Source: a virus (lineage: Duplodnaviria > Caudoviricetes). Taken from it: a stretch of 24,832 bases of DNA. The notes under the pieces were generated by a model, which had not been told where the DNA came from, did not search any database, and saw only the letters and a program-made list of their open reading frames with translations. The translations under genes and the position numbers were made by a program. Of the stretch, positions 5,410 through 20,455 are shown piece after piece (the stretch's first letter is position 1; every line of letters begins with the position of its first letter). The stretch spans positions 1 through 24,832 of the IMG/VR virus record IMGVR_UViG_3300017766_005104. One strand, 5' to 3'.

Positions 5410-5634
5410 CTACCGGCGCCGCTGCACCTCACGCCAATAGCGGTCCTCAACCTTGCCCTGCCAAGCCTGGTACTGCGACATACGTGCCGACGCCCGAGCT
5501 CGTTTCTTCCGCAGGTTCCAGTCATAAAAAAACTGGGCATCCTCCACCAAGCGATGAAGGAGCCCATTTGGTAAACGCTCTGCGATTCGGTTAAGCCGAG
5601 CCAACAACCGAGAACGCAGCTCGCTCTCGTCCAT
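5410..5634 (-). CDS. Hypothetical basic protein
   Basis: ATG 5634 coupled (TGATG) to the AbrB-like stop. Confidence 0.6.
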   Translation of the reverse strand: MDESELRSRLLARLNRIAERLPNGLLHRLVEDAQFFYDWNLRKKRARASARMSQYQAWQGKVEDRYWREVQRRR

Positions 5635-6014
5635 CAACCAGCCACAGCCACAGACTTACTGGAGGCTTTCACGCTCGCTGCAGATTGAGGCACAAGCCGA
5701 ATTGCATCATCCTCGATCACGATCTGCAGTTCATCGCCCGGCTCCACACCAAACTTCTCCGAGTACGTCTTGCCTACCAAAATCACACCATTACGATGGA
5801 CGGTAGTCATAAACTGCGCTGCTTTACCAGGCTTCTTGCTGGTTTTCAGCTTTACACCTTTAGCTTCAAGCAGTGCCTCGTGCAACTTACCGATGAGCAA
5901 GCGCTCATTACCCTTATCCGTATTGCGCACGTAGCCAGCCTCGCGAGCTAGCTCGGCTTGATCCATGTCCGCATTGGCTTTCACAAATGAAAGCAGGTCT
6001 TGCCCAGTGAGCAT
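5634..6014 (-). CDS. abrB: Cyanobacterial-type AbrB-like transcriptional regulator (cyAbrB)
   Basis: MLTGQDLL..VK...LAREAGY...EALLEAKG and TTVHRNGVILVGKTY...PGDE..I......IRL match the cyAbrB pattern; ATG at 6014. Confidence 0.85.
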   Translation of the reverse strand: MLTGQDLLSFVKANADMDQAELAREAGYVRNTDKGNERLLIGKLHEALLEAKGVKLKTSKKPGKAAQFMTTVHRNGVILVGKTYSEKFGVEPGDELQIVIEDDAIRLVPQSAASVKASSKSVAVAG

Positions 6015-6055
6015 GAGTGGTAAAACGCTACGAAAACAGCGTATCACACAAAGCT

Positions 6056-8005
6056 CTACTTGGCATCGGCCCAGCTACTACCAAAAGAAGCTTCCGCCAC
6101 GATAGGCACCAACTGACAAACTACCGAACCCGCGGCTTCCATAGCTCCGGCTAATGTTTTCGCCCACTTCTCCACTACCCCATCCTCAACCTCGAGAACG
6201 ATCTCGTCGTGCACCATGGCAATAAGCATCGCTTCCTCTGGCTTAGCCGCTTTTATGTTGTCCCATATCATCGCGATGGCAATCTTAGCGATGTCACCCG
6301 CTGTACCCTGCACTTGCGTGTTGATTCGCGTAGTGTATTTATCATTAAAGCCTGTCAGTATCCTACGCCTACCATACCTAGTAAATACAGCGCGCGTAGT
6401 CTTATTGCCTTCTTGCATCTGCCACTCATAAAGCTGGGGATACGCTTCACGAAACCCAGTAACAAGACCCTGGGCTTCTTCTAGCTCCATATCTACACCA
6501 TACTGTGCAACAGCTTGCTTCCTTAACGTAGCAGCACCTGCCCCATACAAAAGCCCGAAATTACAGAGCTTCGCAGAAGTACGCTCTTTCTTCGTAATAG
6601 TATCAGCACTTTTACCTGTCACTAAAGCCGCGGTCTCTGTGTGTAAGTCCCGCCCAGCTCGGTACGCCTCCAGCATGCGCTCTTCACCAGATAGCTCCGC
6701 GGCCACCCTCAGCTCCACCTGACTGAAGTCAGCCACAACCAAGGTGTAACCCTCACGAGCGCGAAACAGGCGCCGAAACTCCCCCTCCCGCGGCACTTGC
6801 TGAAGATTCGGACCTGAGCAACTCAGCCTGCCCGTCTCTGTCCCCATCTGCCGGTACCCCGCATGGATCCGCCCGTCCGGTCCAATCGAATCCAGCAGTT
6901 TCTCAATGTGAGACACACGGGTTACAGCCGCCTTCCACTCCATGTACATGGCCACGAGCTCGTACTCCCCCTTCAGAAACGCCAGCAGGTTCTGATCCAA
7001 ACTCGGTGCTCCCTTCTCGTCCGGTGGTAGCAGAATGCCCGCCTGCTCAAACCGCTCCGCCATCTGCTTCGGAGAGCGCGGGTTGAACCCCTTGTAGCGC
7101 TTGGTTCCAGCGCGGATCGACCCCGAGTCCTTCTCCCGTGTGTTTAAGGCCCCGTCCTCATCCCGCGGTAGCCACACCGCCGGCTCATCTGGCTTCTCCT
7201 GTTTGATCGCCAGATCCAACGCCTCGAGGAATGTCGTCTTAAGCGTCTCAGCATTGTCTTGCAATGAGACTTGCAGCGCCGCGGCAGACACCGCATCAAA
7301 TCCAAACCCGTTCCACTGCATCCGAGCGATGGGCCGAAGCGCCATCATCTCCAGCTTGAAGATGTCCCACAGCGTCACCGAGGGCGACACCTCTGACTCC
7401 TTCAGCGCTGCTACGAGTGCGGGCACCATCCTCGGTAGACACACCGCGTCCCGGGCGGCATAGCGGACCATCTCATCCGAGATCTCCCCTGCCCAGTTGG
7501 CCTTCTGTAGCTCCTTAGGCAGCGGCACCTTCAGCACACGGCTTACCAGACTCCCCAGGTCGTTCTTTGCCCCTGTGCCGTTGTTCACCACCTTGGCGGC
7601 AATCATCGTGTCGAAGATCGATCCTCCGAGCTCGACACCTTCCCCCGCTAGGAAGTTCAAGTCGAATGCAGCATTCTGCAGCACCTTCTTTTTTGGCCCC
7701 TCGAGCAACGCCTTCAGCTGACGTAGCCCTGGTGCATCCCAAGGCAGCTGCCGCCCGCCCTCGGTGCGCCAACCTTCCACATCGACCACCAACGCATAGT
7801 CGCAACTTGCGACTTGGATGAGACGCACGCGATTCACCAGTGGATCCAGGCCAGTGGTCTCTGTATCCACGCCCAGCGGACCCACTGCCTCCCCGAGCTC
7901 GGAAACGCGCCGGGTCAGCAATGCCGCAGCCTGTGGACCACGAATGAAGTCGAAATCCACATTATCTAAAGCTTCCTTGTGAGCAAGGGATTCATCGGAC
8001 GGCAT
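6056..8005 (-). CDS. polA: Family A DNA polymerase with 3'-5' exonuclease domain
   Basis: ExoI DTETTGL, ExoII NAAFDL, ExoIII YAARD; TGRLSC..PNLQQ; motif A DFSQVELR, motif B KLCNFGLLYG, motif C VHDE. Confidence 0.97.
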   Translation of the reverse strand: MPSDESLAHKEALDNVDFDFIRGPQAAALLTRRVSELGEAVGPLGVDTETTGLDPLVNRVRLIQVASCDYALVVDVEGWRTEGGRQLPWDAPGLRQLKALLEGPKKKVLQNAAFDLNFLAGEGVELGGSIFDTMIAAKVVNNGTGAKNDLGSLVSRVLKVPLPKELQKANWAGEISDEMVRYAARDAVCLPRMVPALVAALKESEVSPSVTLWDIFKLEMMALRPIARMQWNGFGFDAVSAAALQVSLQDNAETLKTTFLEALDLAIKQEKPDEPAVWLPRDEDGALNTREKDSGSIRAGTKRYKGFNPRSPKQMAERFEQAGILLPPDEKGAPSLDQNLLAFLKGEYELVAMYMEWKAAVTRVSHIEKLLDSIGPDGRIHAGYRQMGTETGRLSCSGPNLQQVPREGEFRRLFRAREGYTLVVADFSQVELRVAAELSGEERMLEAYRAGRDLHTETAALVTGKSADTITKKERTSAKLCNFGLLYGAGAATLRKQAVAQYGVDMELEEAQGLVTGFREAYPQLYEWQMQEGNKTTRAVFTRYGRRRILTGFNDKYTTRINTQVQGTAGDIAKIAIAMIWDNIKAAKPEEAMLIAMVHDEIVLEVEDGVVEKWAKTLAGAMEAAGSVVCQLVPIVAEASFGSSWADAK

Positions 8006-15032: not shown

Positions 15033-15680
15033 CTACCAGACAGTAAATTCTTCTACTTCTATGCCCTCCATAGCAAAAGCGTATACACCTGTGTGCTTAC
15101 AACGATACACTCGCTGATAGATTGTAGAGTAATTTAGTCCTAATTCTTTGCACAAACTCTTAGCATTATACAGTACTCCCTGATACAGGTACATTGTTTT
15201 AGTTACGTGACCTACTACAGGTCTTTTACTACGTAGCACCCTAGATGCAGCTATGCGCACTGTTTGTTCCTGCGGGGATACGCAGTCTTTATTCCGTCTA
15301 CTCTTAGCTACTCCGCTTTCATCTCGTCCGTTATCGTCTTGCCATCCTAGCGCTAGTTCTTCTTTTCCTATGTGCCGGACTACCATACTACCTGGATTTT
15401 GACCCGTTTTTAAGTAGTACGCAATCCTATGGGCATAAAATAATCCATGTCCCCGCACAGACACTAACCATTTTGCTCCGCTTCTTGAACCAGCTGGTTC
15501 ACCTATTTTAGCTTTACCATTTTTACTAGCGACTTTCCAAACAAGGCCCGAAGGCGATGTACTAGATATCTCGAGCAGCTCTTCAACTATTGGTGGAATG
15601 GGGCGTGGAGCTCCCTTCCTATTGAGCGCGTAGTGCACATCGGTAAGCGGAAGGCAGCGCTGGTATGTCTGAGCAGGCAT
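15033..15680 (-). CDS. HNH homing-endonuclease-like protein with apparently degenerate active site
   Basis: AT-rich; SPSGLVWK...GEPAG...YAHRIAYYLKTG..P...VVRH and C-terminal LCKELGLNYSTIYQR HTH. Start uncertain (15680 or 15761). Confidence 0.65.
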   Translation of the reverse strand: MPAQTYQRCLPLTDVHYALNRKGAPRPIPPIVEELLEISSTSPSGLVWKVASKNGKAKIGEPAGSRSGAKWLVSVRGHGLFYAHRIAYYLKTGQNPGSMVVRHIGKEELALGWQDDNGRDESGVAKSRRNKDCVSPQEQTVRIAASRVLRSKRPVVGHVTKTMYLYQGVLYNAKSLCKELGLNYSTIYQRVYRCKHTGVYAFAMEGIEVEEFTVW

Positions 15681-15866
15681 ACAGGTCTCTGAGGTACCCC
15701 ACAAGCATACCCCCCTACAACTTTTATTTATATACAGTTTTTCTAGCCCAGGATGTGACATATCCCCCTCTAGCCCAGTCTCACTGCGACGCAGGGCTGG
15801 ACTCAACTTGTGACACAGCGAGACTCATGTCCCTCAGGTGCGACTCATGAGACTTACTGGGGTGGC

Positions 15867-15895
15867 TTGACGACCGCGCGGCGCCATGCCAGACT
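15867..15895 (+). promoter_or_regulatory. Promoter P1
   Basis: TTGACG-17 bp (ending TGC)-CAGACT. Confidence 0.5.
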
Positions 15896-15958
15896 GACCT
15901 CACGCGCGCACATCATGCGCGTTTTCAGCTCTCACTGCAACCACCTCCGGCGGATTGC

Positions 15959-15987
15959 TTGACAGCTGGCTGCCCTTGTGCAACGCT
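15959..15987 (+). promoter_or_regulatory. Promoter P2
   Basis: TTGACA-17 bp (ending TGTGC)-AACGCT. Confidence 0.6.
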
Positions 15988-16078
15988 TAAGGGCATCGGG
16001 AGCTCAGCCGCCCCGCGGAGCCTAGGCCTCTGGCCAGCTCCCCGCGGCTGCGCGCCGATCCCCGTTCCGGCGGGGTGC

Positions 16079-16107
16079 TTGACAGATCGCCCGATCTGTG
16101 CAACCAT
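16079..16107 (+). promoter_or_regulatory. Promoter P3
   Basis: TTGACA-17 bp (ending TGTGC)-AACCAT; 120 bp after P2; spacer contains the palindrome ACAGATCG-cc-CGATCTGT. Confidence 0.62.
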
Positions 16108-16113
16108 TCTCTC

Positions 16114-16646
16114 AGTCGAAACCACCGATGCGCTAAGCCACAGAGCGGGGCAGGGCCCCGCGCGATAAATAGGCCACGGCCGCCGAACCGCTTGTCCCCG
16201 TCTGGGGGAGCGAGGGCGCTAGGGCCTGAGATAAGTAGGGAGCTGGGCTAGTACCCCAGCGAACGCGAAACCCCCGAAAAGTCGGTCCCGCTTTCATGCG
16301 GGCTGAGTCCGGTGAGGGGCGGAGTAGTTGATCAACCGAAAGGCTCAGGTGGGTGTTGACCCGTAACCGAACGCGGACCCTTCGTACCGGTGTAGGACGC
16401 CAAAGACAGTAGTGGCTAGCGTGCACCGCCTCACGGCGGGGGTGTGTCCGGATTCCAGCTCCGGGCGAGGTGAGTCAACTCCCCACACCCAGCACAGATA
16501 GCGGCGCTCCTATCAGGCCGCATTACAAATGAGTGATAGGACGGTCGTGCGTGTCGACCGTGGCAACGGGCATTCGGCTCTGCCCATCACGCACAAACCA
16601 TCTCCCCCAGAAGTTCCCCCTGGCGCACTGCGTCCGGGGGTCTTTT
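16114..16646 (+). ncRNA. Candidate large structured non-coding RNA (~530 nt)
   Basis: No credible ORF; bounded by P3 and a terminator-like hairpin; more than 10 local stems plus long-range helices; locally G-rich against the C-rich + strand. Confidence 0.62.
16616..16646 (+). terminator. Terminator-like or processing hairpin
   Basis: CCCCCTGG-CGCA...GCGT-CCGGGGG then TCTTTT; extendable by CCAGAAG/CTTTTGG. Confidence 0.6.
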
Positions 16647-16689
16647 GGCTGAGGTGCTTTGCATCTCACGTCCCCAAGCTGTGTCCAGC

Positions 16690-16908
16690 ATGCGTTTCAA
16701 TTCCCGCCGCGCCGATGTCACCGGCTATCTCGAATTCATCTGGATCGAGAAAGACCTCCCCGAGGGCGTCAACCCTCAAGCCATCGCCCTGATCACGGAT
16801 ACGACCGACGGCCGCTTCCACGGCATGTATGGCCTCCAAACCGTGTCCGGCCCCACCGTTTCCGCAGTCAAGGCAGAACTGTTCGCCCTCATCGAGGCAG
16901 GCCAGTGA
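16690..16908 (+). CDS. Hypothetical protein (first gene of the early-type array)
   Basis: ATG 16690; C-ending codons begin here. Confidence 0.7.
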   Translation: MRFNSRRADVTGYLEFIWIEKDLPEGVNPQAIALITDTTDGRFHGMYGLQTVSGPTVSAVKAELFALIEAGQ

Positions 16909-17135
16909 TCACCGAGCACGCCACCGCCGAGCACTTCGCTCGCTGGGAGTCCCACGCCCGTGGTCTGGACGCCTACTCCCTCCGCTACATCGTGGCCGAC
17001 TGCCACCAGGCCGCCGCCGGTATGCGCGGTTGGAATCCCTCCCGTGAGGGCTACTACTTGGACCAAGCCGCCACCTATGGCATGGAGCTAACCCGCCGCA
17101 ACCGCGAGCTCCCACCAGCTTTGCGCCACCGTTGA
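16905..17135 (+). CDS. Hypothetical protein
   Basis: GTGA overlap; VITEHATAEHFARWE...YYLDQAATY..EL.RR. Confidence 0.7.
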   Translation: MITEHATAEHFARWESHARGLDAYSLRYIVADCHQAAAGMRGWNPSREGYYLDQAATYGMELTRRNRELPPALRHR

Positions 17136-17356: not shown

Positions 17357-17535
17357 CCTACGAAATCCACTGCACCATCACCGATGAGCTCGGCACCCGC
17401 ACCGCCCCCACCGGCATCTGGGGGTGGAGCCGTGCCGACCTCGTGCTGGAACTCGCCGGCCTAACCCGCCGCAACCCGGACTGCACCTTCCACATCGAGG
17501 AGTGCATCCCCGAGGACGCCTTCAACGCCTACTGA
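17353..17535 (+). CDS. Hypothetical protein
   Basis: ATGA overlap at 17353; 60 aa. Confidence 0.68.
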   Translation: MTYEIHCTITDELGTRTAPTGIWGWSRADLVLELAGLTRRNPDCTFHIEECIPEDAFNAY

Positions 17536-19682: not shown

Positions 19683-19844
19683 ATGCGCATCATCACCCTT
19701 CAAGTCGTGCGCGAGCACGGCACCGAGCCACGCCTTGCCGTTCAAGTGGACGGCCGCCGTGGCGTCCCTTCATTCCTCGCCCCTGAGGACGTTGGCACCT
19801 GGATCCAGGGCTTCATCGCCGCACTCCCCCCGCTGGAGGACTGA
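19683..19844 (+). CDS. Hypothetical protein (53 aa, MRIITLQVVREHGTEPRLAVQVDG...)
   Basis: Manual translation; TGATG-coupled to the HNH gene. Confidence 0.62.
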   Translation: MRIITLQVVREHGTEPRLAVQVDGRRGVPSFLAPEDVGTWIQGFIAALPPLED

Positions 19845-20455
19845 TGCGCCGCTTCACTCTCACGCCTGGAACTGCCAAACCTGAATGGTTGGCTGTACCA
19901 ATACCAAGGTACGCTCACTTATACGAGGTCTCTAGTGCTGGACAAGTTAGAGCGCTAGACAGATTCGTAATAGACAAGCTTACGGGTATTAAGCGCTCGC
20001 ACAAAGGACGGATAATTACACCGAAACAGTCTGGCCGGTACCTAGGCGTTTCGCTATTCGACCATCCGGACTCCTCTCGTTTTTACATACACCGACTTGT
20101 AGCCCTTGCGTTCATTCCTAATCCCGATAACAAGCCCTGTGTTAATCACAAAAACAGAGACCGTTATGACAACCACGTCGAAAACCTGGAGTGGGTTACT
20201 TATCAAGAAAACTCACAGCATCTTATCTCATCTGTTGACTATGTGCCACCACGAGCGGTCAAAGGCGAGGATAGTCCCTCGGCGAAACTCAACGCTGAAG
20301 TTGTCGAGCAACTTCGCTTGTCCTGGGAGCCAGGGGCGCCTATTGGGAGCTTGGCTAGGCTGTACGGTGTTAGCCACAGGGCGCTATACCAAGCACTTAG
20401 CGGGAATACTTGGAAGCACGTTGCTCCTAAACGTGCAGTTAACTGGCCACACTAG
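19844..20455 (+). CDS. NUMOD4-HNH homing endonuclease with C-terminal HTH
   Basis: YEVSSAGQVR (NUMOD4); IHRLVALAFIPNPDNKPCVNHKNRDRYDNHVENLEWVT..EN; YGVS...TWKHV; AT-rich relative to neighbours. Confidence 0.93.
   Translation: MRRFTLTPGTAKPEWLAVPIPRYAHLYEVSSAGQVRALDRFVIDKLTGIKRSHKGRIITPKQSGRYLGVSLFDHPDSSRFYIHRLVALAFIPNPDNKPCVNHKNRDRYDNHVENLEWVTYQENSQHLISSVDYVPPRAVKGEDSPSAKLNAEVVEQLRLSWEPGAPIGSLARLYGVSHRALYQALSGNTWKHVAPKRAVNWPH

Follow-up and report, generated by a model that had tools for sequence, protein, structure and literature searches.

The window analyzed here is the whole 24,832-nt stretch of virus record IMGVR_UViG_3300017766_005104 (24.8 kb; Caudoviricetes), a record that is 36% complete and encodes tail proteins, a DNA polymerase, a primase, a single-strand binding protein, an exonuclease, a sigma70 factor, and two HNH nucleases. 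Among isolates, the top match of the sigma factor is that of Synechococcus phage S-CBS3, with 33% identity; no isolated phage matched the window at the DNA level, and its proteins are at most 33% identical to those of isolated phages (top matches 31–33%). An AbrB-like transcription regulator (PF14250) is encoded at 5634–6047 on the minus strand, adjoining the DNA polymerase gene. Because the sigma factor resembles that of S-CBS3 and an AbrB-like gene is present, the host of this freshwater virus is likely a cyanobacterium. Two close-set genes of the unknown family phrog_32006 lie at 1507–1926 and 2164–2556.

The first-pass annotation had marked 16114–16646 as the only long gene-free stretch of the window; such a stretch exists and is longer than claimed, running from 15807 to 16689. 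It lies between an HNH endonuclease gene on the minus strand (15033–15806), which adjoins the promoters, and the first early gene on the plus strand (16690–16908; 72 aa, no Pfam family). The second HNH endonuclease gene is found at 19844–20455, and an exact 16-nt repeat inside the early genes (17088–17103 and 17461–17476) is a possible recombination point. With a promoter profile trained on the family's own promoters, three plus-strand sites were scored at about 26, namely P1 at 15867–15895 (sigma70-type: TTGACG, 17 nt, extended −10; 26.2), P2 at 15959–15987 (26.0), and P3 at 16079–16107 (26.3), while the next best site in the window scored 10.7. These sites are sequence motifs, with −35 elements starting at 15867, 15959, and 16079; the position of the proposed RNA just after P3 is thus borne out, and its start is predicted from the P3 spacing at about 16113–16115. 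No other promoter of this type precedes the early genes, which therefore seem to need transcription through the RNA, in agreement with its placement at the head of an early-type gene array. A GC-rich hairpin just past P1 (15899–15924) persists even in phages whose sigma identity is 66%.

The proposal that this stretch encodes a structured non-coding RNA of about 530 nt on the plus strand was supported in size, strand, non-coding status, and structure, and contigs from RNA libraries lie on it. Five of the six sequencing runs matching the stretch are recorded as RNA. In three RNA-library runs from one study, contigs of 540, 449, and 278 nt lie on 16145–16638, 16145–16583, and 16215–16490, and the 540-nt contig has its own minigene (described below) within 44 loose bases at the 5′ end. 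In runs X2 and X3, from a second study, contigs extend through the promoters, the cassette, and the neighbors, and the one compared over 20 kb shows broad coverage of the phage. For runs X1, X4, and X5, the rest of the 20 kb is uncovered except for pieces of about 30–80 nt; the runs were picked by this stretch, so this non-coverage is not counted. All of this evidence consists of contigs, which are silent on strand, ends, and level and may include DNA.

The RNA had been described as assignable to no family, and searches agreed. Rfam covariance models gave no hits in the window at the gathering score and none in E-value mode, nor any hits in 11 related loci. ARAGORN found no tRNA or tmRNA genes in the window (of a record 36% complete) or in 13 loci, and neither program gave a match to tmRNA, RNase P RNA, or group I/II introns in the window and related loci. 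No description of the RNA was found in the literature covered, which comprised titles and abstract beginnings, with most subscription papers outside that coverage. The IMG/VR candidate RNA set of PMC10690425 spans 29–151 nt and could include sub-modules of this RNA; six motifs of the RNA were absent from the supplements covered.

Exchange and diversity of the core

Related loci were fetched via the sigma factor, and 80 of 114 were kept. When compared with the window, they match to about 16138 and resume at 16542–16591, and most of them are unmatched in between; the plus-strand segment at 16140–16545 is thus delimited by locus comparison as an exchangeable structured core, called allele A in the window. 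In a tree of sigma genes with 24 rows, allele A appears in three separately supported clades, which forces at least three changes. The allele A cores of four phages are 94.7–98.3% identical, although their sigma genes are 64.9–97.2% identical to that of the window; conversely, five phages whose sigma genes are 98.0–98.6% identical to the window's carry allele B, with a core identity of 46–49% against a shuffled baseline of 47.5–49.4%. Comparison of the loci with the sigma tree shows the core to be a cassette exchanged whole between related phages. The 5′ joins vary from one A carrier to another and are found again in several independent records, so chimeric assembly is unlikely, even though assemblers could in principle be misled by the near-identical 3′ flank.

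Further loci were gained by pattern scans. Among the 120 stretches listed for a 14-base core pattern in viral contigs, there was one full-length allele A match (L256); a gapped two-motif pattern gave 29 stretches, made up of 24 contigs of the existing set, one new B member, and four chance hits; and a genome scan gave 14 stretches, of which one was genuine (L288, allele C) and none came from a cyanobacterial genome. Positions 1–800 of L288, a 3.4-kb contig from a bin labeled Myxococcota, hold allele C together with a promoter remnant and the 3′ module; it is probably a mis-binned phage contig.

The slot is filled by very different bodies. Forty distinct bodies fell into nine blastn clusters, three of which align as one C group, and body D (L020) lies outside this 40-body set; at least eight body types can therefore be counted. 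Two-sided changes were found in 35 of 150 predicted pairs of body B and in 29 of 80 predicted pairs of the C group, counts that lean favorable because the structures were predicted from the same alignments. An arm of 60–68 nt closed by GAA/AGUA, a closure that we take to be loop-E-like, is seen in A, B, F, and G; in the window it lies at 16260–16327 on the plus strand and is likely common to bodies B, D, F, and G. A covariance model of this arm, R2, was built from the B, F, and G arms and searched against 67 kb including held-out loci. Each of its top five matches lies in a held-out locus, at the place where the arm was expected (L322, E 0.001; two A copies, E 0.05; D, E 0.08; L136, E 0.18), and its top match in the window is at 16264–16330 (10.8 bits, E 0.69). 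Since the arm limits were picked after seeing A, a common arm in several bodies is suggestive only. Model R1, built from the entire B core, missed the window core and found another A copy at no better than E 0.79; A and B are therefore not shown to be homologous over the whole core. The RNA is likely under diversifying selection.

In 25 loci, the allele tracked neither the first downstream gene nor the HNH gene at 15033–15806, as expected for a self-contained product. The HNH gene was found in 9 of these loci, the window's own included, and by allele in 1/5 A, 7/9 B, and 1/2 F loci. It was accordingly discarded as the driver of exchange. It may still be asked whether the bodies are selfish or nearly neutral filler, that is, folded inserts spread by recombination or by the adjacent HNH nuclease with no gain to the phage. 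The high mobility of the core, the adjoining HNH gene, and a relative (L042) with a long ORF after the promoter instead would fit such filler, but HNH presence does not track the allele, no intron or ribozyme family was matched, and pairing is conserved within each family, so that this explanation appears improbable. The L042 locus (7172–8000) belongs to a more distant relative with 41% sigma identity; its ORF begins about 120 nt past a similar promoter, and it has no minigene.

Pairing within allele A

All ten stems named in the first-pass annotation are present in the sequence at the positions given for them, and the reversed skew noted at 16201–16260 was counted as stated (26 G against 13 C). 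The description of the region as densely paired did not hold for single-sequence energy, which is at the chance level: the MFE is −224.3, with a z of −0.63, and 23 of 100 shuffles are equally stable, so that the folding energy of the region is no better than that of shuffled controls. Its only outlier is the 3′ end (z −4.3 to −4.6). Folding energy was dropped as a proof of structure, given the z of −0.63 here and a range of +0.5 to −3.4 among the 15 bodies tested.

The named stems were therefore judged by comparison, being fixed beforehand and examined in seven distinct homologs that are 97% alike. The long-range helix 16130–16141/16412–16422, proposed to close a domain of about 270 nt, was not supported, with 5 of its 11 pairs broken in six of the seven sequences. 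In the nine local stems, by contrast, all 50 pairs are kept across the seven sequences, with two two-sided (compensatory) and four one-sided (wobble) changes; the one-sided changes are all from G-C to G-U on the plus strand. In a scan of all helices compatible with the seven sequences, nine carry a two-sided change, and the two longest of these, 16224–16230/16344–16350 and 16541–16547/16555–16561, had not been named before. The former is a long-range helix of 7 bp that closes a multi-branch domain (16224–16350, plus strand), with one compensatory change from A-U to G-C in L033. The AGGCC/GGCCU stem (16171–16227) keeps its pairs in the seven sequences, but it is probably not a native pairing because it overlaps this helix. 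A 5′ hairpin at 16145–16161 on the plus strand is also found heading some C-type bodies. Much of the core fold of allele A remains a candidate only, as the seven distinct copies are 97% identical.

A minus-strand ORF of 97 codons spans 16133–16426, which raises the alternative of a small protein gene or, together with the possibility of an assembly chimera considered above, of an element acting at the DNA level. A stop interrupts this frame in L033, so the ORF is not conserved among homologs, and it has no Pfam match; the one-sided stem changes, all from G-C to G-U on the plus strand, and the varied and recurring 5′ joins also count against these alternatives. These alternatives are largely refuted and can be given hardly any weight. 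Pairs kept through compensatory change without a conserved ORF, the mark of a large structured non-coding RNA, were found for allele A and, as regards pairing, for other alleles as well. Across the family, the comparisons show a non-coding RNA with pairing kept under change, whole-core swaps, a conserved minigene, and conserved 3′ modules, as read from the aligned loci.

Minigene, boxA-like motifs and 3′ modules

Just inside the predicted 5′ end lies a start-stop minigene, ATG-CGC-TAA, at 16128–16136 on the plus strand. From 51 distinct sequences with the 3′ module, six truncated short of the promoter were left out, and ATG followed by one codon or none and a stop was found in 42 of the remaining 45 relatives with promoter and 3′ module; the middle codon is varied, and all three stops are used. 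In controls, the same arrangement was found in 4 of 158 interior windows and at none of 31 upstream promoters. The three relatives without a minigene are L152, L096, and L151. L152 has three plus-strand matches to the picocyanobacterial boxA and L096 two weaker ones, the boxA sequence being that of an rRNA primer in PMC9769826; by eye, neither a minigene nor a boxA-like motif is present in L151. The bodies of L152 (500–875) and L096 (740–926) form a related pair that is AT-richer. In the window, no boxA match within three mismatches was found at 15800–16700. It has been reported that two-codon minigenes can increase downstream expression, possibly via mRNA protection (PMC8708949, available part).

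At the 3′ end, two elements follow each other on the plus strand. The first is a pseudoknot module at 16541–16592, in which the loop (16549–16553) of stem 16541–16547/16555–16561 pairs with 16588–16592, with a hairpin at 16568–16585 in between; its helices carry 3, 1, and 1 pairs with two-sided changes among 23 distinct sequences. Most B alleles lack the pseudoknot. The second is a long imperfect hairpin of 23 bp at 16599–16656 (z −4.56), which is 100% paired in the 23 sequences, with two two-sided pairs. Together, the two elements are 99.9% paired in the 23 distinct sequences, with seven two-sided pairs, a level reached by 0 of 500 shuffles, a comparison that kinship can inflate. The RNA had been said to end in a hairpin plus a U-tract; the hairpin is there, but the tract consists of four U (16643–16646), received no call in a terminator scan, and can pair inside the long hairpin. 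This hairpin is likely an RNase III-type cut site or a leaky terminator. According to the available parts of the sources, cyanobacteria possess RNases III, P, Z, E, and J (PMC10989914), and the RNase III site R1.1 of T7 is cut on a single strand (PMC8708148).

An HDV-like ribozyme was also considered for the 3′ pseudoknot and was ruled out by eye, since the HDV-like fold includes a P3/L3 element and the module has none. At 16651–16668, an alternative pairing is available between the 3′ arm of this hairpin and bases just downstream, and in L117, L006, and L136, this arm changes together with its upstream partner and with the downstream bases; such joint change suggests a switch, or a 5′ hairpin formed on the mRNA after cleavage. 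In L010 and L151, a further hairpin module (about 63 nt) sits immediately ahead of the long hairpin, flanked by two copies of a short shared word.

Seven distinct sequences end in a tRNA-like cloverleaf instead, with acceptor and T arms that are varied yet complementary. The cloverleaf replaces the window's 3′ hairpin at L039 (4825–4945), L040 (7775–7870), L021 (7965–8120), L322, L329, and L352; it has a long acceptor stem, a T arm, and an extended anticodon arm, was missed by ARAGORN and Rfam, and in L021 has an insert before the T loop. The C-type body is seen with either 3′ ending, and the presence of two unrelated modules after the same type of body suggests a common job of setting the end of the RNA.

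The features at both ends also bear on a cis-acting leader, in which the RNA would aid read-through of the 3′ hairpin by polymerase (put-like or boxA/Nus-like) or protect the early mRNA and would have no role once released. The RNA separates the only strong promoters from some 8 kb of early genes, it ends in a hairpin with a U-run whose 3′ arm has an alternative partner just downstream, and boxA-like motifs occur in L152 and L096, all of which would suit a leader. Against this, the promoter and cassette region of the window has no boxA even at three mismatches, a boxA-like motif (by our own pattern) occurs in only 8 of 40 bodies, and unalignable cores interchange ahead of the same first gene; the RNA antiterminators known to us are, moreover, far shorter. 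A cis-acting leader is thus regarded as rather unlikely.

Possible role and comparison with known systems

The reading preferred here, though held tentatively, is that this folded non-coding RNA, with its core exchanged between phages, acts in trans as a stable free RNA, serving as a decoy or scaffold; it draws on analogy. A role in trans is favored because folds that cannot be aligned interchange ahead of one and the same gene and because the same end is marked by two modules unrelated to each other. The position of the RNA on the sole path from P1–P3 to the early genes counts against it, as this position fits a role in cis equally well. For a trans-acting RNA, the following course may be proposed. 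P1–P3 would be used by the host RNA polymerase, so that the RNA is likely among the first products made in infection; a ribosome would load at the start-stop minigene, shield the 5′ end from decay, and depart at once, so that the RNA stays folded. The core would then fold, tertiary motifs included, and would be freed from the early mRNA by the long hairpin, through an RNase III-type cut or a leaky stop, or, in other phages, by the tRNA-like cloverleaf, through RNases P and Z. In the last step, by analogy, the free RNA could serve as a decoy or scaffold that soaks up a host factor able to bind or cut RNA, and several folds may be kept circulating by different host types.

A broader and more speculative possibility is that phages of this group have a dedicated RNA-gene slot heading the early genes, with a ribosome shield and a release module built in, in which large folds are traded as host-specific effectors. 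If true, such RNA-slot effectors would be the RNA counterpart of hypervariable anti-defense proteins. Phage RNAs of the large ornate kind were discovered years ago, and a function for them has been lacking; here, one slot, behind the same promoters and often ahead of the same downstream gene, takes several folds, which amounts to a natural swap experiment, in which the alleles are exchangeable one for one and the features common to the folds (partner, size, and one arm) should point to the job. The conserved minigene heading a non-coding RNA, together with boxA-like motifs in relatives without one, suggests how a phage may protect a long untranslated RNA.

The RNA had been proposed as a new or divergent member of the GOLLD/ROOL kind. 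It is structured and matches no Rfam family, but membership in GOLLD or ROOL was not upheld, as Rfam was negative and the window has no tRNA genes; Rfam includes profiles of both, according to the available part of bioRxiv 10.1101/2024.12.08.627333. The RNA studied here resembles the GOLLD and ROOL RNAs described there in being phage-encoded, several hundred bases long, and rich in covarying helices. GOLLD is often longer than 800 nt and often lies near tRNA genes, whereas the present RNA is about 530 nt long in a window without tRNA genes (36% complete record); it also differs from both in matching no Rfam family, in heading an early operon, in having unalignable bodies in one slot, and in starting with a minigene. 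GOLLD and ROOL do form cages (same source, available part), and an RNA-only assembly, with each allele forming its own homo-oligomer or cage, would be in line with the similar size, the phage origin, and the covarying folds rich in tertiary motifs. The lack of an Rfam match and of tRNA genes in the window speaks against such an assembly, as does the failure to find, by eye, a loop palindrome kept across variants, and it is considered quite unlikely.

The RNA may also be set beside three other arrangements. The bacterial rRNA operon has a boxA in its leader, and its stable RNA is released by RNase III and by processing of spacer tRNAs; the present locus is similar in its strong tandem promoters, its long untranslated folded RNA, its hairpin or tRNA-like end module, and the boxA-like motifs of L152 and L096, but boxA is missing from the window, the RNA body is not an rRNA, and most members have the minigene instead. 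The early region of coliphage T7 has tandem host promoters, and here, too, three tandem sigma70-type promoters, recognized as motifs, are followed by a long imperfect hairpin immediately ahead of the first gene; unlike in T7, a structured and exchangeable RNA of 400–650 nt lies between promoters and hairpin, and the hairpin is only a candidate cleavage site. Finally, the two-codon leader minigenes of axe-txe and EHEC LEE1, as described in the available part of PMC8708949, share an ATG, one codon, and a stop near the 5′ end of the transcript, whereas the minigene described here heads a non-coding RNA; some 550 nt separate it from the next gene, a distance that makes close translational coupling unlikely.
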